Source: Pseudovirgaria hyperparasitica (lineage: Eukaryota). Taken from it: a stretch of 64,000 bases of DNA. The translations under genes and the position numbers were made by a program. Shown here piece after piece: positions 14,140 to 64,000 of this stretch (positions are counted from its first letter, which is position 1; every line of letters begins with the position of its first letter). Location: NCBI GenBank assembly GCA_010093815.1, contig ML996572.1. One strand, 5' to 3'. The notes beneath the pieces are model-generated. The model had not been told where the DNA came from and did not search any database. It worked only from the letters and a program-made list of their open reading frames with translations.

Positions 14140-17100
14140 CGAAGATAATAATATAAGTAGAATACCGTAAACCTTATATTAATAAAGACGATAGTAATAG
14201 TTTACCTTATAAAGGGATTAGTTAATATAGAGAAGGGATAATAGGTGTTATAGATAGACGTATTAGGCTAACCTTTAGTTAAGGTAATCCCTTAACTAAT
14301 AACCTTACCCCTAGCGTCTCTACTAGTATACCTACTACTAGTAATAGTGCGATAGGAGCTTAAAATAATAACCTAGTAACTCGTAGAGAGATACTTAACT
14401 TCTTCGTAGCATTTACGCGATAAGGAAGGATAATATCTCTACCTACCCTAGCCCCTAAGCGCTTTAAAGGAATAAACATCACGGCCTTCCTTTGGAAGTA
14501 CGAGGACATATATATAAACTACGAAGTTCCGCCTAATAAGAAGATAATCTCCCTACTATTATACTACGAGGACTATCTCCGTCCTACTATTAAAGGAATA
14601 AGTAGGTTTTAGAAATAGTAGTAGGCTATACTACGTGAAGAATTATTAAAGGAATTCTCTCTATTTAACTCTACCCTTAAGGAAGGCACTATCTACTTTA
14701 TCTAAAAATACGTGGAAATAGTTAAAGTAGACCTATCCTACTCTCTCCCTATATACTACTCCTAGTATCATGTTATTACGGAGAAACTTACGGCTAAAGG
14801 AAGCCTAAGCTTATATTCGCGAATAGAGCTCTTCCTAGAAGGGCTGCCTAATAGTCTTAAGGCTCGGGCTATAGAGAAATGTTAACTTACGATAGAAGCA
14901 TATAGTTATAACTAGGTAATTATCTATAGCTTCGTATTACGAAAGGCTAGAGCACTTAAGGAACTAGCTCGTATTAATAAGTACTTAGCCGTATAAGAGC
15001 TAGCCATAGCCATATACCATAAATCAAAGATAGGGAGTAAGAAGACCGGCTTAGAAGAGTAGTTATATGAAGAAAGAAGAACTAATAAATTTAACTACCT
15101 CTCTCTAGTTATAGTATATATCGCGCTAGGATCGGATAAGTTTAACGAGATAGTAGAGAGATTTAGTAAACTAGACCTTACGTTAATTAAGATGAAGTCC
15201 TACTTTACCTCTAATCCCTTATTTCTATCTCTTAAGAAGTACGAACCTAAGCTACTTTCGGCTATTATTAACTAGTAGACGCGAAGGCTAAATCTTTTAG
15301 TATATCCCTAAGTATAAGGCATGCCTATAGAACTAACGTAAGTTTATCTATAGAATTATATATAGAATAGAGAATACGTCTCTACCCGAGACTCCTAAGG
15401 AGATATTATAGCCTAGGATAGGCCTTAAAGACTGATTATGTATATCACGTACGGAGGAGATTACCTAATATATAGATGTCCGGAGATAGTAGGATACATT
15501 AGAGACGGATTACTAAATATTAACGGGGTATAAGTATTCTAAGGGCGTTTCGGGGCGAACGGAGAAGAAATCCCATTACTACCCTCCTTAGTAGGGCTAT
15601 AAGCTACTCTATAAGCTATCCGGAACTATATAGTAACGGTTTAAAACGGCCTAAGCTAGTACGGAGGAGGAGTAAAGGTTTCTACGTCTATAGTAAATAT
15701 TAACGCTTCATAGGGAGTACTAGTATATAGTATTAGTATAAAACCTATAAAGGGTCCCTACTAGACCTCGGCGGATAGCGATTCGGAAGAAGAAGTCATA
15801 TCGCCCGAGAGTAAGAAAGATAGATATATAGAATTCTATAAACGCTTTAACGTGGCTAGTAATAGATATATCCGCGAGGAGATAGCCCTAGAAGAGCCTA
15901 CTATACTCGTAATATCTAGAAGGGGGATTACGAAGAGTATACCTAATTATACTAAGGAAAGAAAGATCGCCTATCTCCGCGGAATGCGTGAAGGGTAGTA
16001 TATAAGGATTATTAAGAAATAGAAGGACGGTAAGAAGAGTAGCGACTAGGGAACGTCTAAATAAGAGCTAATAGCGCTAGAGGATAAGATAGATAAAGGG
16101 GATAGCCTAAATCCTAGTTAAAAGGCACGTATCCGAGGCGTTAAGCTTAATAACTATCTACGTGAAGGATAGCGGCTAAGTATAGAAGCTAGCGAAGCAT
16201 GGCTAGTGCGCGTTCTAGGGATAACTATAAACATTACTATTAGCGAACTATTAAGCCTTAATAGCGACCTATATTATGCGGTATTTAAGAAGGGCGCCCC
16301 CGACTTCATAGCTAGAGAGGTCTATAAGACTTAAGAAGAGAGAGCCGAGAAGAAAGGAAGAAACGACTATACTATAGCTTCTAAGATAAATAAACTTAAT
16401 ATATTAGCACCCCTCTATACCACGGGGACGGCTATTATATAATAAGATATTAATTAGCTTAAGAAAGGGATAGTAAGGCTAGTGGCCGAGTGTCCGAGGT
16501 ACCCCGTAGAAGTTAGTCCTAAAAGGGCGACTAGTATAGTACTATTTAATAGTAGCGCATAGATAAATAGTATTCGACTAGATACTACGAGGCGTCTTAG
16601 GCTAGTAATATCTTTACTTCTACCATATATAAAGAACTCGAGTTTAGTTAGCGCTACTTAGTATAGTACTCTATTCGTAGGAATAGTATAGTAATACTCT
16701 ATCTATATAGGTCGGATTATTACGGCTACTTTAATATTCGTATATAGTAAACTTAATTATAACCTTATCCTAGGGGAGCTATATACTAGATAGGCCTTAC
16801 TTACGGTATAGAGGTTAGCCTCTAGGTAAGTACTCTTAATAGTCTACTCCGTATATAGATAAGAACGTATAACCTTTAAAACTAGTCCGGATAAGTATAT
16901 TCTAGTCTTAGAGAAGGAGGGTAACTCTATAGCTAGAGACTAACTATATAGCGGAGTATATCGCCGGAAGCCGGAGTTAAGCCGGATTATTAGTTAAGGG
17001 CTACCCTTAACTAATAATCCGTACTAAATAGGGTCTAGTAAACCTACTAACGAAGGGGATAGACTATATTTTTATACGGATATAGAAATGAGTTATATAG

Positions 17101-20100
17101 AGTTGCTTTCTAAGAAAATCCGGCCTGAAAATGTTACTCGGTTATTAAGAAAAGATAACTTAGCCGCCCTAGTTACGGTGGTAAGGTATACTACCTTCGT
17201 ATATAAATAAGGCATAATAATAGAACGGCTTATAGTAGGCTCCACCGGCCTCTAAAGACGGTATTTATCTGGGGTATTAAAGGGATTTAGTATGGCTACC
17301 ATGTATAAAAGAAAGGGAGTTAAAGTACACCCTGTGGATAACTCCGAAGCCCACTAAAAGGTTCCTAGGAATCTATTAGGGTATCTAGACTAGCGTAAAC
17401 GAGTAATCGCATAGTAGGTACTTCTTCTAGCCGTCTACCTAGGCCTTAATATATTTAATAGGCTAATAGAGTCTCGAAGGGTAACTATCCCGCTAGGAAC
17501 ACGTCTAACGCCTCTATATATAAGTTAGCTAAAGATTAAAATAGAGCTACGTCCCGCGGAACTTAAGTTACTATATATAATCTTATTATATCGCGAGGAA
17601 GCACTAGTATAGAAATTCTTATACCTTAGTAAATTTAATAAAGAGGTAGCACCTCCGTAGGAGATCCGAACGGTAGAACATAAGGTATAGTAGACTAAGA
17701 ACTTTAATATTTCTAGAGCCCTTTATAGAAAGGTACTTACGATCCTAAAAGAGCGTCTTAATAGCGGAAGGCTTAAGCCCTATAGTAGTCCTTATTAAAA
17801 CGCCTATTTTCTCGTGGAAAAGAAGAAGGAAGCTAATAAGGAACGAGATTATAGGTTAATTAATTCGGCGATAGAAATTAACCGAGTTACTATTCGTGAT
17901 ACGGCTACGCCGCCCTCGTGTAAAGAGTTCTTAGAGTACTTTACGGGGATGGCCGTCTTAATATTTACCGACTTCTTCTTAGGATACGATTAGATTCTAT
18001 TAGTAGAGTATTACTAAGACTTAACGGGGTTTATAACGCCCCTAGAATTACTACGTAGGATAATATTACCTTAAGGGGCTACTAATTTAGTAGCTTAGTT
18101 CGTTAGAATTATATTAACTATTATATAGGAACATATCCCGGAGAGGGCTCTACTATTCCTAGATGACTTAGGTATTAAAGGACCTATAACGAAATATAAC
18201 TCTAAGGAGGCCCTGCCTAGAATTTATAGGTATATTCTAGAATATTTAATTAACGTGGATAAGGTTCTCGCGGATATAGAGCGCGCTAGATACGCCCTAA
18301 GTAGTAAGAAGACTTAGTGGTATGTTAAAGCCGCTAACGTTATAGAATACGTCTACGACATTAAAGGGAGGCGACCGAGTAATAAAAAGGTTACTACTAT
18401 TAGGGACTAGAAACCCTATAAAAACACGATAAATGTGTGAGCCTTCCTTAGCGTTTATATATATTTCCAGATATAGATCCCCGGGTACGCTATTATTACA
18501 TCGCCGCTATTTATACTATTAAAGAATAAATCGGCCTAGTAGTAGATAGCTAAGGAGTAGACCTCGATGGACGCGCTAAAGATAACTCTAACTACTACTC
18601 CTATACTAATAACGTTACGGTACGGGATAGATACGGGAGATATAATTCTAGTAGTAGACTCTAGTAACGTTAGGTAGGGAGCTACATTAATATAGAAGAA
18701 CGAGAATTATAAATATTAGCTATCGCGGTATAATAGAGGAATATAGTTAAAAGCTAAGAGAAACTACGACACCGTGAAGCTAGAGTACCGAGCCCTCCTC
18801 TATGCGTTATAGAAGTTCCGGTAATATCTCTATGGTATATACTTTATTATAGAAATAGATATAAATACTCTAGTCGCTTAAATTAACCACACCGTAACTA
18901 ACTTACTAGGGGCGCTCGTTACTAGGTAGCTCGCGTGGATTTAGCTATAGAACTTTATAGTTAGGCACGTACCTAGGAAGCGTAACGTAGTTACTAATGG
19001 TATCTCACGGATATATAAAGAAGAAGAACCACTAGATGTCTCTACCTTTAACCTAGATAAGTTCATAGATATAGCTCTATATATAGACGTGCTAGAGACG
19101 TTATTAATTAAGCCCGTTAGCGGGAGAGATTACACGATAGAGATACTCGACTATACCGCCATTAAGTCTCCCTTAATAGATGAATATAGCGATAAATAGT
19201 AGAGGATTACGAAGTACCTTACTATACTCAAGAGGCTAACTAACCTAACCGACCGAGCGTATAAGGCCTTTATAACCGACTATCTAAAGTTCCTTATATA
19301 TAACTAAATACTCTAGCGGAGAGGAGATAGGCATCGCTAATATACACGAGTAATTAAGGATCCGAATACTAGGGCGCGTATAATTACCGCTACTTATAAC
19401 GAGATAGATTATAGAGATAGCGAAGGGACCCTCGGAAGGATTAAGGATAAGTATTAGTAGGTAGATATATATAGAGACGTGCGATAGCACGTAAAAACCT
19501 ATAATAAATATTAATAATAAAGTAAACTCCTCGGAGGTCTTAATAAAGGGCTCTACCACATTATAACGCCTATTCTTTAGTAAAGAATATACTTAGACAT
19601 AACGACGCTACTACCTTCCATAGAGTATAGTAAAGTAGTATCTATATAAGAATAGCTAAGCGGATAGACTAAGGCGGAGGTATATACGGCGGCTACGTCC
19701 ATAGTCGTCGTAAAGTTCCTCTTTAAGAACGTAATCTATAGATACGGAATCATTCCTAAAATTACCTATAATAGTAGTAGAGAAAATATAGGTGCTATAG
19801 AGGAGCTCCTCTAACTCTATAGAATTTATTAGAAGGTTACGTCTACGTATAATCCCCGAGTAAATAGGATTATTAAGAGAAGTTTTATACTACTCGCTAA
19901 TGCTCTCGCGAAGATAACTAATAGTGGATTCAAGAACTAGCCCGGCCACCTCCATATAGTCGTCTAGGTAGATAGAATAACGACACGTGCTAGTATAGGG
20001 TATAGTACCGTATACCTCGTGCTCGGCCATAAACTAATTATACCTATCGAAGTCGAATTCGAGTCGCTCTAAATACTCCCTTAGGATAAGGTACGATTAA

Positions 20101-20654
20101 CATCCGACTTACTCGCTCTTTAAGCTAGATAACTTAAGAGAAGATCCGAGGATCTTAAGGAGGCCTATATCCACACGACACGAACGCGTAAGGAATTAAG
20201 AGAGGCATAGAATAACGACCATTACCTTCGTTAAGAGTCGTTACTAGTCGATACAATTATCCTCCTATACGACTCGCAGCGATAGAAGGATATAGGGCGG
20301 AAGCTAAGGTAGCATTAGAGGGGGCTATATAGAATCTAGTCTATATTTAATTATACTTATAAGCTCGCGGAGCTTAATAGAGCCATGCTTAGAGGGATAT
20401 TTTCTAGCCATAGGTTAAAGAAATATTTTATAAGAAATATAAGTAACGAGAGTTACGACGAGCCCTCGCGACCACTAATTAGAAGAATTACCGAGGAACA
20501 TAAGGAGAGTAGCGATAAGGAAAACTATTATAAATAACTCATGGAACACCTTAACGACGCCACACGAACCCGGGTAGAAGTGGTAATTCCTACTCCGCAA
20601 GACTTTAATAGAGAAGAATATTTACGTTTCCCTAGAATCGACATCTCCTTCTAG
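14140..20654 (+). pseudogene. gag-pol of copy 1
   Basis: RT motif FLDDLGIKGP at about 18156; colinear with copy 2 gag-pol. Start approximate. Confidence 0.9.
16986..17018. promoter_or_regulatory. 33-bp palindrome, site 1 (function unknown)
   Basis: ATTATTAGTTAAGGGC-T-ACCCTTAACTAATAAT, with one RIP-type mismatch. Confidence 0.6.
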
Positions 20655-21334
20655 GGGATAGAAGTTTTTTTAAGAAGGGAAGGGATACTTATAAAAGTAG
20701 CCTCATAACGATAAACTCCATTATCGAAAAAGGATAATGAACTCCATTATCGAAAGAGGATAATAAACTCTATTATTACTATAAAATAATAAAACTCATT
20801 ATTAAAGCAAGCAATGCTCGAAAGAAGACATAATAGCGTTTACGCGAAATTCCACCTACCACACATTAAAACCGGTCGTATAATCGAAGCCTACCCATCG
20901 AAGGTCTATTTCATTACTATAGAACGGGCCCTATTAGAAACTAATAAGAAAGAAAAGAAGGAGGAGGTATAGGAGAAAAAGATACTTATAGAAAGTCTTA
21001 TAAGGATAAGAATATACCCAGTATCTATTTATTTATAGATTCCGCCATATACCCGGTAGACACATTTATTTATAGATTTCCTATATACCTAGTATATATT
21101 CATTCATAGATTTAACACGTATACGGGCCTACGGCCGTTAGTAAGGATCATTTATAAAAATCACTATATACCCGGCATTCGAGGAGGCATAAAAAGAGAA
21201 CTTAAGATAGTATATAACTCTTCCCTCTTACACCTCTCTATACCTCCTTAATTAATAAAACCTCCTCCTCCACTTCCGCCTCGCTTAATTATCTCTCCTT
21301 AGAACGTAACTTACCGATAGAACCGATAATAATA

Positions 21335-24268: not shown

Positions 24269-24287
24269 GCGCCTAGAAACCTACCTA

Positions 24288-24320
24288 ATTATTAGTTAAG
24301 GGCTACCCTTAACTAATAAT
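24288..24320. promoter_or_regulatory. 33-bp palindrome, site 2 (function unknown)
   Basis: Same palindrome, about 20 bp after the end of ORF3. Confidence 0.6.
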
Positions 24321-24466
24321 CCGGGCTAAGGTTTACCCGCGCCGAGAGGTTTACTAGAGGCGCATTTTATTTATATTAAGGTCTTTCTTTTAGGCGTTCT
24401 TTATATAGTTTCTTATACGGTTACTATACTACTAAGGGTAGTAGTTCTATAGGCCGGGGAGGTATA

Positions 24467-42232: not shown

Positions 42233-42236
42233 ATTT

Positions 42237-42599: not shown

Positions 42600-45500
42600 C
42601 ACGAAGATAATAACACAAGTAGGATACCGTGAACCTTATATCGATGAAGACGATAGTAATAGTTCACCTTATAAAGGGATTAATCAACATGGAGAAGGGA
42701 TAATGGGTGTTATAGGTAGACGCATTAGGCCAACCTTTAGTCAAGGCAATCCCTTGACTAATAACCTTACCCCTAGCGTCTCCACTGGCACATCTACTGC
42801 TAGTAATGGTGCGATAGGAGCTTAAAACGACCTAGTAACTCGTAGAGAGATACTTAACTTCTTCGTAGCATTTGCGTAATAAGGAAGGATGGTACCTCTA
42901 CCTACCCTAGCCCCCGAGCGCTTTAAAGGAATAAACATTACGGCCTTCCTTCGGAAGTACGAGGACATATATATAAACTACGAAGTTCCGCCTAATAAGA
43001 AGATAACCTCTCTACCGTTATACTGCGAGGACCATCTCCGTCCTACCATTAAAGGAATGGGTGGGTTTTAGAAACAGTAGTGGGCCACGCTACGTGAAGA
43101 ATTATTAAAGGAATTCTCTCTATTTAACTCCGCCCTTAAGGAAGGCACCATCCACTTTATCCGAAAATACGTGGAAATGGTTAAAGTAGACCCATCCTAC
43201 TCTCTCCCCATATACTACTCCCGGTATCGTGTTATCACGGAGAAACTTACGGCTAAAGGAAGCCTAAGCTCGTATTCGCGAACAGAGCTCTTCCTAGAAG
43301 GGCTGCCTAATAGTCTTAAGGCTCGGGCTATAGAGAAATGTCAACTCACGATGGAAGCACACAGTTACGACTAGGTAATTATCTATGGCTTCGTATTACG
43401 AAAGGCCAGAGCACTTAAGGAACTGGCTCGTATTAATAAGCACTCAGCCGCATAAGAGCTGGCCACAGCCATATACTATAAATCAAAGATAGGGAGTAAG
43501 AAGACCAGCTTAGAAGAGTAGTCACATGAAGAAAGAAGAACTAATGAATTTAGCCACCCCTCTCTAGTCGAAGTACACGTCGCGCTAGGATCGGATAAGT
43601 TTAACGAGATGGTAGAGAGATTTAGTAAACTAGACCTTACGTTAATTAAGATGAAGTCCTACTTTGCCTCTAATCCCTTATTCTTATCCCTTAAGAAGTA
43701 CGAACCTAAGCTACTTTCGGCTATTATTAACCAGTAGGCGCGAAGGCTAAATCTTTTAACACACCTCTAAGCACGAGGCATGCCCATAGAACCAACGCAA
43801 GTTTATCCATAGAATTATACATAGAATAGAGAATACGTCTCCACCCGAGACTCCTAAGGAGGCGTTATAGCCTAGGATAGGCCTCGAAGACCGATTGTAT
43901 GCATTACGTGCGGAGGAGATCACCTAATATATAGATATCCGGAGATGGTAGGATACATTAGAGACGGATTACTAAATATTAACGGGGTGCGAGTGTTCCG
44001 AGGGCGTTTCGGGGCGAACGGAGAAGAAATCCCATTACTACCCTCCTTAGCAGGGCCATAAGCTACCCTATAAGCTATCCGGAACTACGTAGTAACGGTT
44101 TAAAACGGCCCAAGCTAGTACGGAGGGGGAGTGAAGGTTTCTACGTCCATAGTAAACATTAACGCTTTATAGGGAGTGCTAGTATATAGTATTAGTGTAA
44201 AACCTACGAAGGGTCCCTACCAGGCCTCGGCGGACAGCGATTCGGAAGAAGAAGTCACGTCGCCCGAGAGTAAGAAAGATAGATATATAGAATTCCACGA
44301 ACGCTTCGACGTGGCTAGTAATAGATATATCCGCGAGGAGATGGCCCTAGAAGAGCCCGCTATACTTATAATATCTAGAAGGGGGATTACGAAGAGTATA
44401 CCTAATCGTACTAAGGAAAGAAAGATCGCCCGTCTCCGCGGAATGCGTAAAGGGTAGTATATAAGGATTATCGAGGAATAGGAGGACGGCGAGAAGAGTG
44501 GCGACTAGGGAACGTCTAAATAAGAGCTAACGGCGCCTAAGGATAAGATGGATAAAGGGGATGGCCTAAATCCTAGTTAAAAGGCACGTATCTAAGGCGT
44601 TAAGCTTAATAACTATCTACGCGAGGGACAGCGGCTAAGCATAGAAGCTAGCGAAGCATGGCTGGTACGCGTTCTAGAGATAACTATAAATATCACTATT
44701 AGCGAACTATTAAGCCTTAATGGCGACTTACGTCGTGCGGTGTTCGAGAAGGGCGCCCCCGACTTTATGGCTAGAGAGGTCCGCGAGGCTCAAGAGGAGA
44801 GAGCCGAGAAGAAAGGAAGAAATAACCATACCATGGCTCCCGAGATAAATAAACTTAACGTATTAGCACCCCTCTATGCCACGGGGACGGCCATCACGTA
44901 ATAAGACATTAATTAGCTTAAAGAAGGGATAGTAAGGCTAGTAGCCGAGTGTCCGAGGTACCCCGTAGAAGTTAGTCCTAAAAGGGCGACTAGTATAGCA
45001 CTATTCGATAGTAGCGCGCAGGTAAATGGCATTCGACTAGATGCTACGAGGCGTCTTAGGCTAGCGATATCTTCGCTTCTACTATATATAAAGAACTCGA
45101 GTTTGGTTAGCGCTACTTAGCATAGCACTCTATTCGTGGGAATAGTGTGGTAATGCCCTATCCGCATAGGTCGGATCGTTACGGCCACTTCGATATTCGT
45201 ATGCAGCGAACTTAATCATGACCTCATCCTAGGGGAGCCATATACTAGGCAGGCCTTACTTGCGGTGCAGAGGTTAGCCTCCGGGCAAGTACTCTTAATA
45301 GTCTACTCCGCATATAGATAAGAACGTATAACCTTCGAAACTAGTCTAGACGAGTATATTCTAGTCTTAGAGAAGGAGGGTAACTCTATGGCTAGAGACT
45401 AACTATATAGCGGAGCATGTCGCTAGAAGCCGGAGTTAAGCCGGATTATTAGTTAAGGGCTGCCCTTAACTAATAATCCGCACTAAATGGGGTCCGGTAA

Positions 45501-49769: not shown

Positions 49770-52703
49770 ATGGCCCCGCCGAAGAAGAAAACGCCTACCC
49801 ATAAAGAGTCATAAGATTGTTAAGCACTAATAAGATAGACGCGGTCCTAGTCAAGAGTCGTAAGTGCTAAAGCAGGGCCATCGACGGCTATCGTGGTATC
49901 GAGGCCATCTACTACTCCGCACGGATAGGCTATAGAAGCTACGGAAATAAATAAGTCTACTATTAACCGAATTATCGCCATCTAGGACCCGTAAGAGCGA
50001 TAGGACTATATTCTAGACACGTTTAATAATCTCCTTCACATCACTAGCCTCGTAGAATAGCTCTTAAGTAGTATAGTTAACCTCTTCTAGAAAGCAGGAG
50101 CCGTAATAGGGTATAGTAAGGCAAAGATTGACTCCTCTATTCCGAAAGAAGTCCACGAGATAATTCGTTGTGGAAGAGATACTAACTCCCGCATCCTAAA
50201 AGCCAAAAATGCAATCCTATAAAACTAGCGAAAAGACCTCCCTAATGACGACGGCTAGTCACTCTAATCCGCCCTCGGACAGCTCTGGTAAATATAGAAC
50301 TTTATGGAAAAGCTAGTAGCGCTCTCACGAGTGCGAACATGGGCGAGAGCGAGGAACTAGTTAAACGTATCTCTATAGTCCCGAATCGGCCAGGGACAGA
50401 AGGGAAGGGGAATCAAGGTATATCTTTAGAGCTCTAATATCGATGCCGCCCTAGCTAGTAATAGTAACGAGGACGGCCTATCTCTCTAGTAACTCTCGAA
50501 CTACCCTAGCCGATAAAATAAACTAACGTTCCATAATAAGACGGGACTTATTATCCCCGCCAGTTAATAGTCACGGATAAGTAGAATGGTTTATAGGCCC
50601 GTCGAACACTACCTGTAAATTAAAGAGATAAGTACATCGCCTCCGCCTTAGGCCTTACCGTCGCTAAAACTAGTATAGGTAACGCCCGCGGTAAAGTCCC
50701 CTCCACGAAGCACGCCTCCTAGTTCAGTAGCACGTTATCTCTTCGAAGCTAGTCGTCCGTTCGAAGTAAGTATTTCTCCTACTACTACTAGTGAACGTCC
50801 CTTACCGGGCCATGCGAGAACGTCTTTAGTGCCCGTCACGGCCACGCCGATAAAACCCACTCGCGGACGTGCCTCATCTACCGGCCCTTAGTAATTACCA
50901 GGGGCGCCTACACGATAATCCCCGGTTATTCTTAGTTCGTACCCTAAGACGATGGCATCGGTCGAGGAAGAGGACGAGCCTAAGAAGTATTAATGCGCGC
51001 CTTTAGTAACGAAGACTTTTAAGGCAGCTATATTATTAAAGAAGAATTTCACGAGCATTAAGGGAATGGCCCTACTAGTGCGCTGGAAAGCGTAGATAGG
51101 TAACATGGCTATTCCGTATAAAGTCTACTATAAGCATTGCCAAGACGTGGCTAGAAAGAATGATATACTTATTAGCGTGTCCTACTTAAACCTAGTGGCG
51201 AGACTTAAAATAGTATATGAGTTTAGAGATAACGTGGGGGCCCTTAAAGTTTATAAGGACCGCTATACCTGGTTCGCGAAGTACGCGTGGCCACCTCATC
51301 CAATAGAGGCATTAGGTGTCTATCGTTACTAGGCCCTAGAGACCCCGAAGCAAGTTATTAATATTAAAACCATCCTTACTAGTATCGCATTTATGATTCA
51401 GAAGGAGGATAGTAGGATAGGCAGGTAACTCTTCGACGAGTGGGAACGTACCAGAAGTATTAATATTAAAGGGCTCTTCGAGCCACTTAAAAAGACGACC
51501 TCTATACTTAATAAGAGTATCCTAGAGCTCGCGAGGGATGAATTTAATATATACAAGTACCACCAGCGCATGTTTAATAAGAAATCGAACTACGGCTGGC
51601 TACGAACTGTATACCACTCCTACATCTAATAGTTTATTAGGTAATGCCCACTTTACTAGCTCACCTATATTGCTCTTCGGCCCGATCTTAACTACCATCT
51701 AATCTCGTACCCGTACTATGCGAAGTCCTAGGATAGGGGCGATAAGACGGGTTTTAAGCATCTCGATAACGCCATTAATCGAATCCTCGATCCTAGCGAT
51801 AGACACGGGTTTAATATAATCTAGGGAAGCATTAGTCTCGACGACGAACAAAGTAACGACTACACCATAATCGTTCCCCGCTTCTATAAGTTCTTAAACG
51901 AATGGTAGTCGAAGGCCAAGCTCCGCGAGGGGGTCAATTAAAACGGTATAATCACGGCTATTAACGATAAGATCTATAATGCGGACGATAGGAAACGATT
52001 TGGTCCCTTCGTCCCGGTCCCCTGCCAGTCCCTTAAAGTACGCATCTCTAGCCTACTAATAATGTACGGCGCCTAGGGTCCCGTAAAGGGTGGAAGATGC
52101 ACGATGCTTCCATGGTATATCGCGATTGGCCCTGATCACATGATAATGGAAGTGCCTGAAATGGGCATATAGGAACAACTCGCAGCAGCTCACAGGAATT
52201 TGACTCCGGGACCCACGTCTCCGTCGGGATTTTCCAATAAATACGGCGCGATTCCTTTTGCCTTCCTAGCCGCAGTTTAACTCCCGAGTTTTAACGCCGT
52301 TAGTAACGTATTAGTCGGCCGTAAAAGATAGGACAGCTAGGAGGTGAAAGAAGAGGTAGCTGCGTGGCTTAACGCAAGTCCTTAATAACTTAAAGCCAAG
52401 GTAGACGCCTAGTTCAAGGAGGGCTCGAGGGTATTCGTGGAGACCTTTAAGAAAATAGTAAGGTAGGAAAGGCTGGTCTATGGGGATAGGTCGTTCTAGA
52501 AGGAATTTAATAAGGCGCGCGCCGCTAAGCGGCTAATTAATTTTAAGAAATTCGAGCCCGACGCGGGCCTAGATAACGTTAAAGAGAACTTCTACGGATA
52601 AGAGAGGCCTAACGAACTATCCGACGAGGAGGAATCTAACCTCTCTAAGATAAGCGACACGATTCTTTAGGAGCTGGCTCGCGACCTCAAGTACTAAGAT
52701 TAG
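49770..52703 (+). pseudogene. ORF3 of copy 2: about 975-aa putative nuclear 2OG-Fe(II) dioxygenase (PhyH-like)
   Basis: Starts MAPPKKKTP. Contains TGFKHLD (H 51759, D 51765), I[Q]GSISLDDE...[C]TIIVPRF[H], M[H]GA[Q]GP and GR[R]TMLPW. All internal stops are TAA/TAG. The true stop is ambiguous (52697 or 52703). Confidence 0.8.
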
Positions 52704-52722
52704 GCGCCTGAAAACCTACCTA

Positions 52723-52755
52723 ATTATTAGTTAAGGGCTGCCCTTAACTAATAAT
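52723..52755. promoter_or_regulatory. 33-bp perfect palindrome, site 4 (function unknown)
   Basis: Lies between the end of ORF3 and the PPT. Confidence 0.6.
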
Positions 52756-54316: not shown

Positions 54317-54439
54317 GGATAGATAGTAAGTAGGTCCGCCCGATGGATATAATAGGATGAAAGAATACTTAGGGAGTACTTAGGAGTACTTGGGAGCGCT
54401 GTATCTTTCCTAATGTAGTAGGCGGGTAGTTTATAAGAT

Positions 54440-56700
54440 AACGACTAAAACCTAATAGATAGTAGTAAAAACCTACCATTTAACGATAATAAAGATAGTT
54501 AAGGGTTTAGAATATAAGAAATTAGATTCTTCTAACCTAACTTAGATTATAGCTTCGGAGATAGAGATGTCGTTTTTACTAGTTAGAATATATATATATA
54601 TAGCGTGTATATTTTCCTTAACTAGATTAAAGACGCTACTACAGCTAGAGGAACCAAAACTATTAAGTTAAAAATCTCTTAGTATCTATAAGGATATACC
54701 CTCGAGTAGTTTATGTTAGATTTATCTAATCTTAAGAAGAAGGCGCTCCGTTACTTACCTAGTTTAGATACCTAGACTACGGCCTTAATTAAGTAGTTTA
54801 AGTAGCCGTTATCTAATACTCTATTATCCCTTATAACGCGAAGATATACTCTCTAATAGACCCGCTCCTAAACTAATATTACTTTATATATATATACTAT
54901 AGCTTACGACTATAGTACCGTATAATTATTAGGCCCTTCTAGCTAAAACGCTTAGATGTTCGCATAGAACGGCATTAATATTCTTTTTCGCTAGGGTCTA
55001 TCTCTACTAATAGAATCTACGTCTCTAGCCTAATTTATATAAACTCTATAGATAAAACGCAAAGAATAGTACTAACTCGCCTACTATTATCTCGGGGGCG
55101 TATAGTATAGTACTTTAAGTTAATTTACTTAATAAGGAAGAGAAGATAGTTAATATAATAGCTCTTATCGCTATAACTTATCTTAACTATTTAGTAACTC
55201 TTAAGACTAGGGCTAGTCTAATAGCTATTATCTTATAACTAATTAACCCGATTAATACTATAACTCGTACTAGCCCTACCCTCTATAATAGTTCTAATAA
55301 GGGTTAGAAGATTTAGATAAAGGCGGTTAAAAGGCATTAGCTAACGTACGTTAGCTACTAGCTATAACTAGCGCTTCTATAGGTTATTCTACCGGTTCTA
55401 GAACGACTAATAAGCTCTATACCGGCTAGCCTCGGTCTCTTAGTAATAATAGACGATTTACCTAACTACTATAACTATTCTACTAGGCGTATAATATTTA
55501 GGAAGAATTATATAATCTAGACGTTAAAGACGCTTACTATACAGGGGTTAAAGAAGCTTTCTTCTACCTTAGACTAACTAATATAGATACTATTAAACTT
55601 ATATAGTTTAGTAACGAAACCGGCCTCGCTAGCCTTAACCCGCTACCTAGTAATATTAATAAGAGCCTACCTTCGTAGTTTATAGCGTGCTAAGTAACTA
55701 ATATATATCTAGTATACTAGATCTAATATAACGTTTATAACGAGGTATTTCTATCGCGAAATAAGCTATTTAAGTACCTTAAGGATAGAAAGTACCTTAA
55801 GATAATAATAAAGGCTAAGGTTCCTCTATATAATCGTATAGTTCTAAGATTAGACGTCGTATATTATAATATCTAGGGTAACGTAGTACTATTATTAGTT
55901 AGTAATCTACTAGGTACCGGCTAAGTATATAAAGAATCGTACTATATCTAAGTTAAGGCCTTACTTAGTCTTAACGGCCCCGTTAAACGCATCTATCTAG
56001 ACATAGAAAGCGTGGTAACGCTAATTAACTAAGTCTTTCTTAAACAGTAGAACCCTAATACCTAAATACTTACCTAACTAGCTATTTCTATTTAAGGAGT
56101 AGAGGGAGTTAAGCCTATAAAGTTAACTAAGTTCATAGTTATTATACTATTTCTCCCGGGCCGAACGTCTAATAGTTTAACTACTATAATAGCGAAAGTA
56201 ATATACGAAGTATATATCCTTAACTATCTATAGATAGGTCTCCTTCTCGGAACTAACGTTATAGTATCTTAGAAGATAGATATCTATATAAGTATATATA
56301 TAATAACTATTGGTACATGTGGCAGGATTACTATACTAACCTTTACTACTACTATTCGACTAGTAGTATACTAGGGAGTAACCGTTTCATAGTATACCGT
56401 CCTCTAGCTATAAATACTTACGCTAGTTCTAATTATAATCTATCGCTAGCACGAGTTAGTTATAGAAGATTATATATTCACCCTAATATATATAAGTATA
56501 AGGCTTAGTTAGGGCGGAGGCGTCTATATATATCTTACTAACTAAAATATAGCGTATATATTTATTATAAACTATAGATTTAGGTCGGTATATATAAATA
56601 AAAATATAAGACTCGGTATATTAACGGACGAAATAGACGCCCTCTACGTATTTTAGACTAAAGTAGTCCCTTTAGATAGTATAGAGGGATTATCTATAAA
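54440..56700 (+). mobile_element. Truncated Ty3/Gypsy gag-protease relic, second family
   Basis: Gag-like F..EI.FF.P.LD..G.GDV near 54510 and protease-like I[C]LD[T]...VTLI near 55990. Confidence 0.55.
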
Positions 56701-57779
56701 TGTAAGAATAGGGTTATTAGATAGTAGTATAGTTAGATAGAATAATAGGGTGTATTCTATTATAGAACGAATTACTACCGAACCCTTTTAGTAGGAATCC
56801 GAGAGTATATATATAAAGGGACGCCGATCTATCTAGTACGTAACTATTTACCGCCCTTCACGTTACCTCCTAACCCTGTTAGCTAAGGTACGTGTAGGTC
56901 GGGTTCTACCTAAGACTAAGTCCTAACACGATACTTCTAGATATATAGTATAGAGATACTATTTACGAGCGTATCCTTATATAATAGATATCTATACGTT
57001 CTTATTACCTTAACTTTACTATACTTATATAAGTTCTTCGATAACTACGCCTTAAAGTTCTCTAGCGCCTTAATCTTCTTATCTACTCTCTCTATACCTA
57101 TCCGCTAGTCTATTATCTACTTAATAACCTCTATCTAGTCTATATATAGCGCCGTAGGACTAGAAGCCGTAGCTACTAGAACTAGCTTAGGCGGCGTTAC
57201 TTCTTAAGGAACTAGTAATATACTAGATAGAGATAAAGAATATTAAGGCGGAGGGTATATCTAAATAGAATAGGGTAAATAAGGCTAGATATACCTATAT
57301 AGAATAACCTCTTATTTAAATATACCGTCGCGTTAATAACGTTTTACCTTACGATTGTCTATCTACTCCTTATTATATATTCAATCCCGTCTCTCTTTAT
57401 ATCTAGCTTAAGCCTTATTATACTTAGTCTACTATTCTTTACGTTTTATATTCTATAATTACTACTTAGTAGTAAATAACTATATATCCTCTTATAACTT
57501 TATCTATTTCTCTTTATTAAGCTAACGCTTATTAGAACGCTTCGACTATACGCCGATAGACTTATAGTTATAGAATTACTCCTTTAGAAAAGACGGTAGA
57601 TTCTTAATAGAGATACTCTCCTCTACTTCTATGGTAAGTACGTTTACCTAGTAGTAGATATCTACGGTTATAATCTTATAGTACTATAATAAATCACTAG
57701 CGAGAGCCATAGAAGAATACATAGACTCTAGTACGAGTAGCGTAAGAAATAGTATAATATATAGAAGAGGTGCCTATAA

Positions 57780-59080
57780 TATAATAGGTAACCTTAGATA
57801 ATAACCTAAGGCTAAGATAGACACCTATAAGGAGAGCTAATTATAGGTACTTAGAATAGGTATTCTAAGTAGTCTACCTAGTAATTAAGAATAGAATATT
57901 AGTATTCTAAGTAATATATTAAATACTTAGAATAAGTATTCTAATTAGAGGACCTTAGTAGAACTATATAGACCCTTTAAGCCCGAACCCTAGAGATAGT
58001 TCTATAGTAATTAATTTAAACTTATACTAATATAATTACTACTTTACTCGCCTACTAGCTAGTTACTATTTATACTCTATTAATACTTACTATAAATCTA
58101 CTTATACCTCTTAAAGCCTTCTAAGTATCTTTATCTTTAGAAAAGCTAGAATACTCTATAGAACGGACTACTTTAGGGATAAGCCGTACCCCTATTAGGA
58201 AGGTTTATTATAGTTTAATTACTTATCTTAGACTCTAAAGTAAGTATTTACGCTATCTATTTAAATATAAAATAGTAAATAATAGATAATTCTTATCTTC
58301 GCAAACTACCCTACGAGTACTAACTATAGAATAAGTTAGATACCTTATTACTAAATTAGGGGAGTAAGTTACGGAGCTCTAAAGGGAAAATATTAAACTT
58401 AGAAAAGCTAAAGAGGGCTTTAAAAGAAAAATTCTAGAACCTTTTAAAGGTAAGCGAAGCGAACTCTAAGGATTCCTAATATAGATTAGAATATACCTCT
58501 AGGTCTATTAAATTTAGGACCTAGAAGAATAAGTTATATTTACTACTAGACTACTAAAGGAAGACGTACTTATATAGTTTAAGCCCTACTTAAGGGACTT
58601 TATAGAAAATAATCCATAGAATTAATAGAATAATACTACTAAGGTCTTTAAACGCTTTAAAGAATTTAAGGAATATATTAAGATAACTTTTAGAGATATA
58701 GATAAATAAAGAATAGCTAAGAGATAGATCTAGTAAATAGTCTAGATAAAATCTATATCTAACTACGCCTCTAAATTCTAATAAATCTCTAGTTAGCTAG
58801 AATAGGATAATAAACCCCTAATTCTCTAGTTCTATACTAGATTATATAATAATATTAAGGACGAAATCTCTAGAGAGAGAGACTATCCTACTAACCTCTA
58901 GAAGTATATTAAGCTTATAGTCTAGATTAATAACTAACTATATAAGAGATACTATAATAATAATAATATTAGTAAACTAGGTAGAGTACCACTCTATAGG
59001 CGCATGCCTCCTCTAGTCTAAGCTACTATATAAGAAGAAACCTACGAATAGGAAAAACTCCCTTATATCCATAACTACGC
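57780..59080 (+). mobile_element. Ty3/Gypsy 5' LTR (about 57780-58212) plus gag, third family, interrupted by the LINE
   Basis: Gag reads EPFKGKRSEL.GFL...WFKPYL...TF.DID...AE.QI...NYASKF...QFY.GL...IKDEI. LTR limits approximate. Confidence 0.7.
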
Positions 59081-59188
59081 TCTATCTATCCTCTTGTTCT
59101 TTATATATATATAGCCCTAGGGGCTACCCATGGGCCTATAGCCTATATTATAATAGTTTACCCTTAGGTAGCACGTATAGATACGGAG

Positions 59189-59221
59189 ATTATTAGTTAA
59201 GGGCTGCCCTTAACTAATAAT
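59189..59221. promoter_or_regulatory. 33-bp perfect palindrome, site 5, in the LINE 3' region (function unknown)
   Basis: Identical to sites 3 and 4. Confidence 0.6.
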
Positions 59222-62200
59222 CGCGGTTCTCCCGGGGTTCTTCCGATATATACCGGGGTTCTTCCGGCATATATCGGGCTTCTTCTAGTATATATACGCG
59301 GGTCTACTAGAACTAGAGGAGAGGAAGGTGTACGAGCATCTATCGGGCGACGTCCTTAGAGTACTTATTAAGCTATCGCGTAATATTAGAGGTCCTCGTT
59401 ATACGGACGAGGGCTTATCTTAGGGTATAGAGGCTAGAGTACGTCGCGAGGTAGTAGTATATTATACCTCTCCGGCCGTAGTCCTCGCACTAGAGAGATA
59501 TATCTAGGACACCTCTCTAGTAGAGGTAATATAGGAGATCTATAGCGCCTATTCGGGCTTAGAGGAGTATGGATACTTAGGCCTTTATTAGCCCTTTATA
59601 TATCTATTTACTCGGTTCCTTCTAAGGCTCTCGGATCCATTCTAGATACCTATCCTATTAGGAGGCCCACTGGGCTTTAAGTACCTCCCTCTATTTATCC
59701 TAGATCTATGACCGTATAACGCGGCTAAGCTCCTTAGGGCTCTATTAGCTCGGGATAGTATCCGGGTTATTTTAAACCTCCTACACGGTCTAGCTCGAGT
59801 CCGCCTCTATATAGTATTTATATTATACTCGAGTTTATTCTATAGTAGGGAGGGCCTAGTAATGCGCGCGGATACGTGTACGTAGTACGGCGAAGGTATA
59901 TACCCTATCTCCTCTACGTTCTTATGCTTATTATTTAGTAAAGTATATAAGTCTCTATATCTAGTAGAAGTTCTATATACTTATTACGTTTATCTCGCGT
60001 TAGAGGAGCGTTATATTAGTAGCTTTATATACGCTAGAGATAAGGCAGAGTATACGGTTTTATATAGACTTAAGCTTTGCCCGCTAAGCTTATGTAAGGG
60101 CCGTGTACTAGCACTCGTGTCTATATATAAAGGCTAGGCGTACTAGGGAGACGTATAGCTATCTCGCCTTATCCCGGGCTATTCCCTACGTAGATACTAT
60201 AATCCGGTATATAGCGGTTTCTATCTAGAGGGCTCTAGAGACGGCGTGTGCCACCTATGGTCCCTATTTTAGCTTATTATTAATTATGACGCCGAGTGCT
60301 CGTATACTCTATGCTAGTAGTTCTATGAAGGCGTCGATTTAGGGGCGACGTGCCCCCTCCCTAGTAGCCTATTCTCTATAGTAGTTAATAAAGTATATAA
60401 GCTAGTATTTTTTAGGTGCGAATTTTACTCTATAGTGCTTTACCTACTAGACGCATTTCTCGTAGTCTCGTTCGAGTCGTGTACATGTTCTACTAGTACT
60501 ACTATCGACCGTGAGGAGGTATATATCATCTACGTATCCGACTATCTCTATATATTCTATTCTCTAAAGGAGGTCTACTATAAAGAAGAGGAAGAGGATC
60601 GGGGAGATAGTACTCCCTTACGGGATACCGTATGCCGTCTCCTTATATTCGCTTCGGTATCCGGGGATATATATTTAAGTAGTCCTTTACGCGAGGAAGG
60701 ACTATATAAATTATATAATCCACTTAGGTATTCGCCTTATCTAGAGGTTATGGATAAGTCTTATATAGTTTACCTTATTAAACGCCCCTACTATATCTAG
60801 GGAGAGTAGTATAACGACTCGTCCTTATTTCTATATAGTCTAGATAACCTTAAGGATATATTAAATGGCTATAATTAGGGAGCTTCCTACCTTCGCCTTC
60901 TGGTTTACTAGGAGAAGGCCGTATACCTATGCTACTATACTTATCTTCTTAGTAATCGTGGCTTCTAGTATCTTACTAAGGTAGAAGAGGAGGGCGATTA
61001 GTCTCTATCCCTTCGGCGTGTTTAGGCTCTTCTCTAGTTTTAGGAGTATAACTATATATACGGTTCGGAAGCTCTATAGGTAGTATTCTATACGGGCGCA
61101 CGCTCGGAATATATGGCCTATAATTAGTAAGGTCGCCTATATGGTCCTCTTAAGGCATCGATTTAGAATTCCGTCTAGCCTAGGCGCTTTATCGTTTAGG
61201 AGTATCTTAATAGCGCCGAGTATATCGTCGTCCGTGATTTCCCTAGAGATACTTATAGCTTCCGGGTATTCCGTGCCGTTAATATCTAATAGGTCTACGG
61301 GTTCTAGGAGAGGGAATATAACCTCTTATAGGATCTCTGTTTTCTCGAGGCTCGTAGAGTATATCTTTTCTTAATATATAAGAGGGGGTATAAGTGGTAT
61401 AGGTATCGGGGAGGCGGTGCTTTTAGCCTATTTTACTATATACCATAGTCTAGTAGTATTACGTGTGTGTCTATCCGTAACTATACGCTACTATTTATAT
61501 CGCTTATTACGGAGGACCTTATCTCGTTATCTTCTCGTCTCTCTCTATTCATTCTACGCTTTAGGTGTATAGTTATAGTATACGCGTGTATATAATCTCC
61601 GGACTTCTCGCCTATACTCTTATACTTAAGGTATGCTTTTCGGGTCTAGGGGTCTATATATTCGGTACGGTACGTGTTTATCTCTTGCTCCCTAGTACGC
61701 CTATAGAAGTGTATTCATGGCCTGGTTGATGGCCGGGCCATTAGATACGTCGACTATAGACGGGTCTAGGATCGTCGATTCTAGGTCCTTTAGGTACTTT
61801 TCCTAGTTAGTGTCCTTCTATAGCTATCGCTCTTATTAGTCTTAAGGGGTAGATACGTCTATTATAGTCTCTATATATTCGTGGTCGGAGTCTATCTATA
61901 TAAGGCTTAGGCGGTAGTATTAAGTCCTATTATAAATGTATCTAGTGGCTAGGGTAAGGTTAAGTGTAGATCCGCCCTTATCTTATTTATATTTTCGCTA
62001 GGTAATCTATCCTACTAGTATAAGAAGGTATAGGAAGCCGTAGTATTAGGTATATAGTTCTCTAGCTCGAAGCTCTTCACGGGTAACGGTTAGTCTACCC
62101 TACTAGCTATAATAGAGGTTAAAGTCTTCTAGGAGGATGTGTTATCCTAGCTTAGTAGTGCCCTTAAGCATGTTATCCGCCTAAAGCAATCGGTTCTAAT

Positions 62201-63978
62201 TATATATATTATGTATATAGAGGGGTCCGATATTCGTCTAGAGGTATAGTATTATCCGGAGGTTATCCCGTTTAGTATATAACTATAATAAGAGTAGAAT
62301 AGACTTATAGATATGGAAGAGGACTCTCCTCTCCGGTCCTAGGGGGTGTATTATATAATATCCTAGGTGTATTATTGGTTTGTTCGTCTGGTAGTGTTTA
62401 TATAGCTCCTATATAGCGAGTATTATAGCTCTAGTCTCCTTAAGGAGTATCGCCTAGTTCTTACGTTTATACTATACGTTTACCTATATAATTAGGAGTA
62501 TATCTTAGTCTCTTATTAGGTGCTAGGGAATATATAGACCTATATATTTATTCCTCTAAGACGCAACTATCCTCGTGCGGCGGCGGCCTTAGTAATTCCT
62601 TAGGGCTATCCTATTATTAGCTTTCTCGGGACGGTTTACTATTCCTAACCGCTTCCTTATAAGGAGGTAGTCTATAGTAGTAGTATTATAGTAAAGAGAG
62701 GAATAGTAGTAGATCGCATTATTTATAGCTACCTTGCTCCCTTTATCCGGATTAAGTAGATATATTTAGTAACCTATTTATGTTTCGCGCACGTAGCCGA
62801 CTACGACGGGTACTTACCGTCGTAGTTAGAGTACTTCGCCGTGTCCCTATCCCTCTAGCCCTCTCCTCGTGTCCCGTAGGGGTACTTCTAGGTACTATAT
62901 TCTTATTAATACTATCTATACCTAGTCTTTTAGGAGTACCGCTATGCCGTATACCCGTATCCCTAATAGTTAAAGCACTATATTATCGCCTATGCTCTAT
63001 CCCATGGTTCCGCCATAAGAAGCTCCCCTTCCACTAGGAATCCCTCTTACGTAATTTAATGCGCGAGGGCGGGGTCCTTAAGCTCTACTATTATAGTAGA
63101 GTATACCTTCGATCTAGTTTTAATCCCTTATATATTCTTCTACCATGCTCTTATAATCTTAATCCCTAGGTATTTTCGCTTATTTAACTATTCTATCCGC
63201 GTGATATCCTCTTCTCTAATAACCTATCCGCTTACGGGTATAGAGTATACCTATATCGGGTATATGGCCGCCCTAATAGAGGCGCCTAGGAAGATACTAC
63301 TAATCGCGTTCGGATCGCGTGAGATAGTCTACTACGCGATATTCATTATCGTGGTAAGTACTACTCCTCCTAGCGTGAGTTTAGTAGTAACGACGTTTAA
63401 CTATATTCCCTTTTATTTATTAATCTTACTTACTATATCCTTTGGGGATGCTTACTAGACCTATACTAGGGTATCCTTATCCTAGATTACGACGCGTATA
63501 CTATATACCACGTCGCCGGTCCGGGGGGCCCGTAGTATAGCCTCCGGTATTACTACTATTTATACCTATATACTAGGGCGCTTACCTTAAGTAAGTTCCT
63601 CCTAGATTCTACGTAGGCTAGCCTCTATTCGGTCGAGCCTACCCTCCGGTGCTCCTAGTTATATCTTCTTCTCCTCCTCTATAATTCCCTTTAGATTCCG
63701 GATAAGGTCCTAGAATATATATAGAAGGGTCTTCTAGCCCTCTCCGGCTTCCTTCTCTATATATACTACCTAGTAGTTAATATAATCTAGGAGGGTTTCC
63801 CCTCTCGGGGTCCCCTTTATTCCGTCTATCTATAGTGGCGTGCGCCTTTAGGTATGTTCTACGTTTTAGATAGGTATATAGTTACCCTCGGTAATATCGC
63901 TATATGGCCTTTTCTATCGTACTGGTGGGGGTATATCCGGTATATACCGGGGTATATCGGTGCCTAAGGCCGCCATAT

Positions 63979-64000
63979 TTATTAGTTAAGGGCTACCCTT
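63979..64000. promoter_or_regulatory. Palindrome site 6, cut by the window end, abutting the LINE ORF1 ATG
   Basis: TTATTAGTTAAGGGCTACCCTT. Confidence 0.55.

Follow-up and report, generated by a model that had tools for sequence, protein, structure and literature searches.

In the 64,000-nucleotide stretch of the Pseudovirgaria hyperparasitica genome analysed here (contig ML996572.1 of assembly GCA_010093815.1; "the window" in what follows), a palindrome of 33 to 39 bp recurs in two retroelement families of different class: a Ty3/Gypsy element with long terminal repeats (LTRs), present in two copies, and a long interspersed nuclear element (LINE). By sequence comparison with relatives from other samples, the palindrome belongs to a module that is native to a clade of Gypsy elements with three open reading frames (ORFs). 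The reading that is favoured here, and held tentatively, is that the window palindrome represents one family's version of a selectively maintained hairpin module, specific in its stem. A docking site on double-stranded DNA (dsDNA) is ranked second and a passenger third; a miniature inverted-repeat transposable element (MITE) and a recombinase site are both disfavoured. An earlier description of the same window, referred to below as the original prediction, had proposed a cis-element used by different transposon classes; the data are better read as showing a native module of one Gypsy clade, which one LINE has taken up.

The 33-mer ATTATTAGTTAAGGGC-T-GCCCTTAACTAATAAT is found exactly at positions 45445, 52723 and 59189 in a search of the whole 64 kb, and with one mismatch, an A for a G just past the centre, at 16986 and 24288; a partial sixth copy, which begins at 63978/63979, carries a first-base mismatch together with the same G>A change. 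These are the six places listed in the original prediction, five of them occupied by full copies and one by a partial copy. No match to the 33-mer was obtained in 100 dinucleotide-preserving shuffles, and the six copies are the only perfect palindromes with arms of at least 12 bp in the window after low-complexity filtering. At the canonical sites the arms are perfect and 16-19 bp long, and the full palindrome measures 39 bp at the junction between protease (PR) and reverse transcriptase (RT), where it is extended by CGG...CCG, 33 bp ahead of the 3' LTR, and 35 bp in the 3' untranslated region (UTR) of the LINE.

Self-comparison of the window identifies two copies of an LTR element of ~11.3 kb, the Gypsy element in question. 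Copy 2, the less mutated of the two (41915-53207, + strand; LTRs at ~41915-42225 and 52898-53207), carries the palindrome at 45442..45480 (+), at the PR/RT junction, with perfect 19-bp arms around a 1-nt centre, within the gag-pol frame and with an ATG 6 nt downstream, and again at 52723..52755 (+), where ORF3 ends, 143 nt ahead of the 3' LTR. Copy 1 (~13400-24840, +; LTRs at ~13402-13770 and 24471-24839) carries it at 16983..17021 (+), the PR/RT junction, over 39 bp with the CGG/CCG extension, and at 24288..24320 (+), past ORF3 and 151 nt before the 3' LTR, both sites having the G>A change after the centre. The canonical sites, 3.2 kb and 10.5 kb into the element, therefore flank RT, RNase H (RH), integrase (IN) and ORF3 in each copy, the bracketing that had been predicted. 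The gag-PR-RT-RH-IN frame of copy 2 extends from 42703 to 48993 with 76 stops inside it, gag-PR and pol being in one frame. A Pfam search of its three forward frames, read with stops as X, recovers only RT_RNaseH_2, RT_RNaseH, Integrase_H2C2 and RVT_3, and the term protease designates here a protease-like stretch.

The LINE lies on the opposite strand. Its RIP-degraded body (from repeat-induced point mutation, RIP) occupies 59223..63977 (-) between two palindromes, with ORF1 starting from 63976 and an RVT_1 match at 60291-61016, and the repeated sequence of the family extends below 59188. The palindrome of its 3' UTR (59188..59222, -, 35 bp, with A as the centre base on the LINE sense strand) stands ~100 nt past the last ORF2-frame stretch, and the partial copy that is truncated by the window end (63978..64000, -) ends 1-2 nt before the ORF1 ATG (63976-63974), in agreement with the predicted positions before ORF1 and after ORF2. 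The LINE carries the bare palindrome unit, without Gypsy flank, and the flanks at the four contexts of the window are unrelated and share no common direct repeat, in line with the unrelated flanks and the lack of a consistent target-site duplication noted in the original prediction.

As RNA, the palindrome units have folding energies between -17.9 and -29.4 kcal/mol (z-scores between -4.3 and -6.9); the LINE site at 59188-59222, taken on the LINE sense strand, reaches -21.9 kcal/mol, and among the 45-nt windows of Gypsy copy 2 the PR/RT site (site A) ranks first in hairpin stability and the site before the 3' LTR (site B) third. Two more strong hairpins lie within 350 nt in the LINE 3' UTR, in the 45-nt windows from 59234 and 59483. 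Directly beside the palindrome of this UTR, three repeats of ~21 nt resembling GGTTCTTCCG.TATATACCGG are also present (59222-59530). Outside the one Gypsy and the one LINE family, the window holds no palindrome copy, canonical or degenerate, and none of the sites found falls in its LTRs. An exact, RIP-aware search with the 25-nt core yielded no match in either the viral or the prokaryotic collection.

All of these copies are dead, RIP-mutated relics. Of the 11259 columns aligned between the two Gypsy copies, 1064 differ. Transitions account for 98.6% of these differences, and in the great majority it is copy 2 that has G or C and copy 1 that has A or T, a pattern that in sequence terms is the signature of RIP; the G>A next to the palindrome centre at 16986 and 24288 is likewise a TpG>TpA change of RIP type. 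In read sets from the same organism, tens of thousands of assembly contigs match the window (39,803 in one run and 14,613 in another), which indicates that the Gypsy and LINE families are extremely abundant, and among the differences listed between the window and the contigs of run X1 there are 1325 transition and 40 transversion places.

A third, degenerate Gypsy site, overlooked in the original prediction, was recovered near the start of gag by a relaxed search. In copy 2 it lies at 42733..42765 (+) and has the form TTAGTCAAGG-CAATC-CCTTGACTAA, with 10-bp arms and a 5-nt spacer; in copy 1 its RIP-mutated form occupies 14271..14303 (+). At exactly the canonical T and A positions, the third site has C and G in copy 2 and T and A in copy 1, and the C and G thus support, indirectly, the suggestion that the canonical TAA/TTA derives from an ancestral CAA/TTG core. 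Read as CAA/TTG, the module is open in the gag-pol frame that is shared by the sites at 42733 and 45445. No ORF of 121-385 aa spanning the PR/RT palindrome was found in less mutated copies.

Palindromes of related Gypsy elements

A full gag-pol query retrieved 40 proteins, the best four of which, including one from Periconia digitata, are 36-40% identical and 1185-1252 aa long. These four are pol-only proteins whose N-termini align roughly at the palindrome position. With their alignment, 157 metagenomic loci were confirmed from 468 candidate stretches, and 80 of them, designated by L numbers, were analysed; several of the counts given below are post hoc. The 504,281 bp of these 80 loci contain 19 palindromes with arms of at least 11 bp, in 13 loci, as compared with 0-1 in each of 10 shuffles. 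Intact relatives possess three ORFs: gag-PR, a pol that is mostly in the -1 frame, and an ORF3 with a length of 950-1236 residues. Every family has a palindrome sequence of its own, in 1 to 12 copies. L018 carries 12 sites of the 25-bp TCTTCGTGAGCC-C-GGCTCACGAAGA, L017 four sites of a 31-mer, L020 five sites and L012 at least three, with three tandem copies after pol in both L020 and L012; in the L059 group, two landmarks carry one and the same stem but different loops, and L004, L006 and L060 each have a single site between pol and ORF3. The 12 copies of L018 are spread over 9.8 kb (291-9474), six of them within ORF3, where they read as SL(R/H/N)EPGS(S/L)K or (F/S)VSPAH depending on the frame. 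Downstream of the Gypsy relative in L012, at 14718-15258, there is in addition a cluster of a different palindrome family, with GACTAGAC-type arms of 10-15 bp and at least eight units in 540 bp.

The sites are not evenly placed along the elements. With positions expressed in pol residues of P0001, eight of the 35 inverted repeats with arms of at least 10 bp fall within residues 0-1200 of pol, five at q22-87 and three at q710-744, nine further ones lie just past pol (q1206-1487), and the RT-RH and IN cores contain none. Protein alignment places the intragenic sites of L017, L018 and L008 in the same indel-rich linker between RH and IN, and the other intragenic sites in the unalignable N-terminal part of pol. 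The most stable 45-nt window of each of 29 family clusters follows the same landmarks, with 7 at the PR/RT junction (2.1 expected), 3 in the RH/IN linker (1.4 expected) and 5 just after pol (3.4 expected), as against 7 in the RT-RH core (12.0 expected) and 4 in the IN core (8.0 expected). The module is found only in the transcribed body: before gag, at the PR/RT junction, in the RH/IN linker, after pol, and in or after ORF3, all of them stretches that put up with change; where it falls within an ORF, translation runs through it.

Conservation is most evident in the intact pair L004 and L006, which are 84.5% identical over 10,930 columns. The 60-nt window that contains their palindrome is 100% identical, the highest value of all windows, and the non-coding 210-nt spacer around it is at least 95% identical; this spacer between pol and ORF3 (8444-8653 in L004, ~7272-7481 in L006) is the best-conserved part of both elements. 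The sequences of this pair point to purifying selection on the palindrome. A CCAAT box on one side and an ATTGG box on the other flank it, the ORF3 ATG follows 69-180 nt downstream, and the spacer may act in ORF3 expression, as an internal promoter or as an RNA element. Together with the family-specific palindromes of the relatives at the same landmarks, this conservation upholds the view that the palindrome is a cis-element of the elements themselves and not of the loci in which they reside.

Differences between families tend to be mirrored in the two arms. L035, the closest relative of the window Gypsy (49.4% identity over 340 aa of pol), has at the same PR/RT junction the palindrome ATTAATTCCTAGGG-CGA-CCCTAGGAATTAAT, which can be aligned with that of the window and in which each difference in one arm is mirrored in the other. 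L004 and L060, which are 77% identical, differ by a mirrored pair of G-C to C-G transversions, and within L018 three of the 12 pairs are changed on both sides, a number reached by 16 of 500 shuffles. In a six-sequence alignment across families, 7 of the 11 outer pairs change on both sides, giving 13 such cells as compared with 4.7 +/- 1.6 after shuffling; neither the cells nor the score was reached by any of 500 shuffles. The weight of this cross-family covariation rests on homology, for which the common landmark and the 67% column identity speak. Furthermore, site-specific flanks lengthen the helix beyond the repeated unit (summed score of 47 versus 34.3 +/- 4.7 at random positions, P=0.007, 22 sites).

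Within an element, the sites bear signs of common descent. An identical set of three arm mismatches recurs in three L017 sites, and one C-C mismatch is common to six L018 sites. Of the 12 L018 sites, 11 agree in centre base and in orientation, and a conserved AAATC is found on their 5' side but not on the other. Given these common derived asymmetries and the constant orientation, the sites of one element are taken to be copies of one another, made in a strand-specific manner. The unit after pol in L004 and the unit at the PR/RT junction in L010 share both unit and flank (...GAAA(A)TCATGATTGGTC), and the unit has thus passed from one landmark to another.

The LINE probably acquired the Gypsy version of the palindrome. 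The direction from Gypsy to LINE is suggested by the clade-wide presence of family-specific palindromes in Gypsy elements and by the fact that the LINE has exactly the sequence of this one family. Some genomic LINE copies have deletions that start exactly at the palindrome edge (contigs join 59221 to 59452 and 45477 to 59301). In the two metagenomic loci with LINE-like stretches, L060 and L059, no palindrome common to LINE and Gypsy was detected.

Hairpin, docking site or passenger

According to the favoured reading, the palindrome would act on a single strand, either genomic RNA or single-stranded cDNA, as a stable hairpin. The stem, and not the loop, would be read by a factor that co-evolves with the Gypsy family or, alternatively, would pair with other copies of itself, and new copies would be generated through a copy-and-paste step linked to reverse transcription. 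The LINE would have taken up the Gypsy unit as a bare piece of 33-35 bp into both of its untranslated ends, and would either benefit from the same reader or simply tolerate the unit. A single-strand hairpin is favoured because of the orientation bias, the helix extensions into unique flanks, the absence from LTRs and the tolerance of sites within ORFs.

A number of points weigh against this proposal. The near-identity of the dead copies in the window provides no evidence for constraint: the only RIP-susceptible position of the palindrome is the G of the central CTG, which is mutated in three of the six copies, and at the difference rates observed between the Gypsy copies (0.657 at CpA/TpG sites and 0.051 elsewhere) only 2.29 differences are expected for a 33-mer of this composition, while 19.5% of all 33-mers of the element differ at no more than one position, so that conservation in the window is uninformative. 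The asymmetries common to the L017 and L018 sites show copying, not selection, and the covariation count across families is partly circular, the sequences having been chosen as palindromes. Conserved stems with variable loops or spacers and nearly fixed spacing are the usual signature of a dimeric dsDNA site and not that of a protein that recognises an RNA hairpin, and mismatches of G-U type on the sense strand are not in excess of those of A-C type (7 versus 5 in L018, 2 versus 2 in L012). The LINE palindromes are in the opposite orientation relative to the sense strand, with A instead of U at the centre and a CAG instead of a CUG loop. The linker location may merely mirror places that tolerate insertions, and the strongest local hairpins of two relatives without ORF3, at the end of the gag-PR/pol overlap (L021 4234-4278 and L026 3955-3999), which were counted among the 29 clusters, are probably ordinary -1 frameshift stimulators, distinct from the repeated palindromes.

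Three observations favour the second explanation, in which the palindrome is a dsDNA docking site for a protein of two-fold symmetry: the stems are conserved around spacers of free sequence but fixed length, G-U mismatches show no bias, and the L004/L006 site lies upstream of ORF3 between inverted CCAAT boxes. This protein could be ORF3, acting like the VANC proteins described below, or a host transcription factor for which the palindromes are internal promoter or enhancer elements of downstream modules, the LINE having copied the tag for its own benefit; on balance this is a doubtful proposition. Several observations fit it. Half-sites are kept and spacers are free at near-fixed spacing (4 x 27 bp in L020, 12 x 25 bp in L018, 4 x 31 bp in L017), the family-specific sequence changes in concert at all sites, mirrored changes in the arms are explained by an altered half-site specificity as readily as by base pairing, and the L004/L006 palindrome, flanked by CCAAT and ATTGG, occupies the conserved 210-nt block upstream of ORF3. 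Internal promoters of LINEs lie directly upstream of ORF1, which is the place of one of the two LINE palindromes. However, the LTRs, where a promoter or an anti-silencing tag would be expected, have no sites; the bias in orientation (11 of 12 sites) and the site-specific helix extensions are unexpected for a symmetric site in dsDNA; and the distance to the next ATG varies from 1 to 180 nt, several sites being located inside ORFs.

The properties of ORF3 bear on the same question. In Gypsy copy 2 it spans 49770..52730 (+), ~985 residues, with a profile hidden Markov model match at 49947-52568, and the family profile also matches copy 1 (21515-24097, +) and 14 of the 80 loci (for instance L004 8746-11592, L006 7462-10416 and L018 5713-9420). 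The family is large, with 1423 representative clusters at E <=0.001 and 320 at <=1e-30. Pfam yields only a sub-threshold PhyH match (E 0.007-0.013, 16-17 bits for a cut-off of 22) and no DNA-binding domain. ORF3 retains an HxD...H triad, a conserved arginine and a CxC...CxxH motif that precedes the dioxygenase domain. The predicted fold of its C-terminal 521 residues (mean predicted local distance difference test score, pLDDT, of 94.8) matches 2-oxoglutarate- and Fe(II)-dependent (2OG-Fe(II)) enzymes of PhyH type, namely SnoN, EctD, GriE, proline hydroxylases and DUF1479, and on this structural model ORF3 is a member of the PhyH-type 2OG-Fe(II) dioxygenase family. The catalytic part hence resembles dioxygenases of small molecules and amino acids, and an assignment to TET/JBP, JmjC or AlkB, none of which is among the top fold matches, is unsupported; the N-terminal helical domain (pLDDT 92.3) has no match among solved structures at E <=0.001, and its candidacy as a DNA binder was rejected. 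Palindromes with arms of at least 10 bp are present in 10 of 11 families with ORF3 and in 2 of 5 families that lack it but have at least 2.4 kb of sequence after pol (a hand count), as the docking site would predict, but the association is suggestive at best, with a one-sided p of ~0.06, and is confounded by common descent. The link to ORF3 that the original prediction had raised as speculation thus receives no direct support, the enzyme being a PhyH-type dioxygenase with two folded parts unlike known DNA-binding folds. No paper on the ORF3 family, or on a fungal Gypsy element with a dioxygenase ORF3, was found in the literature.

A third explanation, which is unlikely, draws on the signs of copying, on the uneven use of landmarks and on the confinement to tolerant stretches. 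It posits a selfish passenger, that is, a minimal palindromic unit that multiplies within retroelements during reverse transcription, persists only at places where it is harmless and is functionless for its carriers, and which invaded the LINE as well. As an example of a route, a template switch could copy the hairpin, which would be released as the nascent strand folds back. Sharp boundaries delimit the units, which, by their shared derived asymmetries, descend from each other in near-constant orientation; copy number ranges from 1 to 12 among families; sites are confined to indel-tolerant linkers, UTRs and disordered parts of ORF3; the unit and flank shared by L004 and L010 testify to movement between landmarks; and in the window the unit is restricted to two retroelement families, the LINE having received it bare, without Gypsy flank. 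A passenger would not be expected, on the other hand, to form the most conserved stretch of the intact L004/L006 pair, to keep its self-complementarity at one landmark over ~50% protein divergence, or to have a helix that reaches into site-specific flanks. In addition, the LINE copies are inverted with respect to the sense strand, which simple sense-to-sense copying does not give, and a literature search turned up no documented mechanism of RT-driven insertion of this kind.

A more specific scenario, argued by analogy and rather improbable, would combine the palindromes with the enzyme. The palindromes would serve as address tags for a protection based on ORF3: the enzyme, or a complex containing it, would be drawn to the palindrome of its family on the DNA or RNA of the element and there take away a mark for silencing or decay. 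In each family the tag would co-evolve with its reader, in the way of VANC and its motifs in plants, and the LINE, the most abundant of this genome, would be a free rider that copied the tag into both of its untranslated ends. If this were true, such copying would constitute a first case of cross-class molecular mimicry between retroelements.

A Tc1/mariner-type MITE with TA duplication, landed in the two abundant retroelements before their amplification, is very improbable: the unit is indeed palindromic, sharply bounded and identical across unrelated contexts, and its outer AT-TA...TA-AT could conceal a TA duplication, a TA inside the palindrome not being distinguishable, but to our knowledge 25-33 bp is far below the size of any MITE, no direct repeat lies outside the palindrome at the four contexts, all copies in the window are in the two retroelement families instead of being scattered at random with target-site duplications, and independent landings cannot explain why the same landmarks are occupied, in every related Gypsy family of the other samples, by a palindrome peculiar to that family. 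Least probable of all is the target of a site-specific recombinase, by which the module would be excised, inverted or exchanged between copies; the inverted arms around a short centre and the two copies around a functional cassette would suit it, but the three forward frames of Gypsy copy 2 contain no recombinase domain in Pfam, the spacers differ between sites of one element (differing spacers block strand exchange in known site-specific recombinase systems), no contig joins 45477 to 52756 among the joints listed, and the 12 sites of L018 make no sense as cassettes.

Further candidates were considered and rejected. A function at the peptide level, such as a protease site, is excluded by the reading of the unit in different frames at the sites of L017 and L018. 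A stimulator of frameshifting or readthrough should lie 5-9 nt downstream of the recoding site, and in L018 ~105 nt separate the hairpin from the ORF1/ORF2 overlap that precedes it; L017 carries the hairpin although its ORF is single and fused, and gag-PR and pol are in one frame in the window, where the TAG upstream of site A in Gypsy copy 2 corresponds to CGG in copy 1. The unit is no polypurine tract, which dismisses a duplicated primer similar to the polypurine tract or its central counterpart, and its arms are unlike the LTR ends, which dismisses an LTR-circle junction.

Other features of the window

GC content is ~0.5 up to ~12 kb and 0.33-0.46 thereafter. The change is sharp, from ~50% in 1-12000 to 28-46% in 12000-64000, and represents an isochore-like boundary between gene-type DNA and RIP-degraded repeats. 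An assembly gap of 265 N (54052-54316) lies in an AT-rich stretch between Gypsy copy 2 and the LINE. Tandem arrays with periods of ~236 bp (24839-25576, abutting the 3' LTR of Gypsy copy 1) and 18 bp (32685-33005) are also present. A segment of 175 bp directly outside the 5' LTR of copy 1 (13224-13398) recurs in inverted form, 93.7% identical, at 58038-58212, between Gypsy copy 2 and the LINE, which suggests a further repeat family as an insertion target of these elements. Queries with nine Gypsy/ORF3 proteins and the LINE frames found no further RT-bearing element in the window.

Significance and comparison with known systems

If functional, the palindromes would represent a new type of cis-signal for LTR retrotransposons: a family-specific hairpin that is located at polyprotein seams and between ORFs, is maintained through compensatory changes and multiplies as a discrete unit. 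They could provide a handle on how long tricistronic RNAs are handled or how successful fungal elements escape genome defence, as well as on the role of the widespread and unstudied ORF3 dioxygenase, and would bear on the borrowing of a signal by one retroelement class from another. If they are selfish passengers, they would be the smallest self-propagating unit described within retroelements, and would point to an unrecognised side reaction of reverse transcription.

No description of such a palindrome module was found in a literature search, and the systems considered below resemble it in part. The mimp, Stowaway and MADE1 elements are palindromic MITEs of Tc1/mariner type. They share with the window palindrome a short, sharply bounded inverted-repeat unit that is identical at unrelated sites, and they differ from it in that the palindrome is several-fold shorter, has no outer duplication, is confined to two retroelement families, and exists in a separate version at the landmarks of each Gypsy family.

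The dimerisation palindromes of retroviruses and Ty1 (dimerisation initiation site, DIS, and PAL) measure 6-16 nt; their place is the 5' leader or packaging region, and the palindrome is often part of a loop. As in these, the palindrome studied here is self-complementary retroelement RNA that could switch between a hairpin and an intermolecular duplex; unlike them, it covers 25-39 nt and is spread over the whole body with the same sequence at each site. Its canonical sites lie at the PR/RT junction and before the 3' LTR and not in the 5' leader, only the degenerate site being near the start of gag.

"Stringent-type" LINEs have stem-loops in the 3' UTR, and 3' tails are shared between LINEs and short interspersed nuclear elements. 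The LINE of the window likewise has a stable stem-loop in its 3' UTR and a cis-element in common with an unrelated retroelement of the same genome. In contrast to that system, there is a second copy at a distance of 1-2 nt upstream of ORF1, the sharing is with an autonomous LTR element, and it is limited to the bare palindrome.

Binding of VANC anti-silencing proteins to motifs of VANDAL, a DNA transposon of Arabidopsis, with loss of methylation, has been demonstrated experimentally, and the motifs lie in non-coding regions (PMC5735166). These motifs are comparable to the palindromes in being family-specific, present in multiple copies (three sites in the window Gypsy, four in L017, 12 in L018, five in L020), variable between related families and sometimes tandem, in an element that encodes an accessory protein. 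The palindromes differ from them in their length and symmetry, in being found also within ORFs and never in LTRs, in the company of an ORF3 without recognisable DNA-binding fold, and in being known from sequence alone.

The closest described system, again by analogy, is the GalEa Copia elements' "Conserved Hairpin Site" (CHS), which consists of two complementary 9-bp boxes with a conserved A/A mismatch, forms a single site that takes the position of the primer binding site, directly next to the 5' LTR, and is reported as being of unknown function (PMC5445492). Both are conserved hairpins internal to a fungal LTR retrotransposon in which the stem is kept and the loop is free. Unlike the CHS as described there, the palindromes occur 2-12 times per element, at inter-domain junctions and after ORFs, none of them abuts an LTR, and their perfect arms of 16-19 bp, with a maximum of 19 bp, stand against 9-bp boxes with an A/A mismatch. 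In some species, an "extended CHS" is common to different families of one genome (PMC5445492), a sharing that parallels that of the palindrome between Gypsy and LINE, which in the present case crosses retroelement classes.

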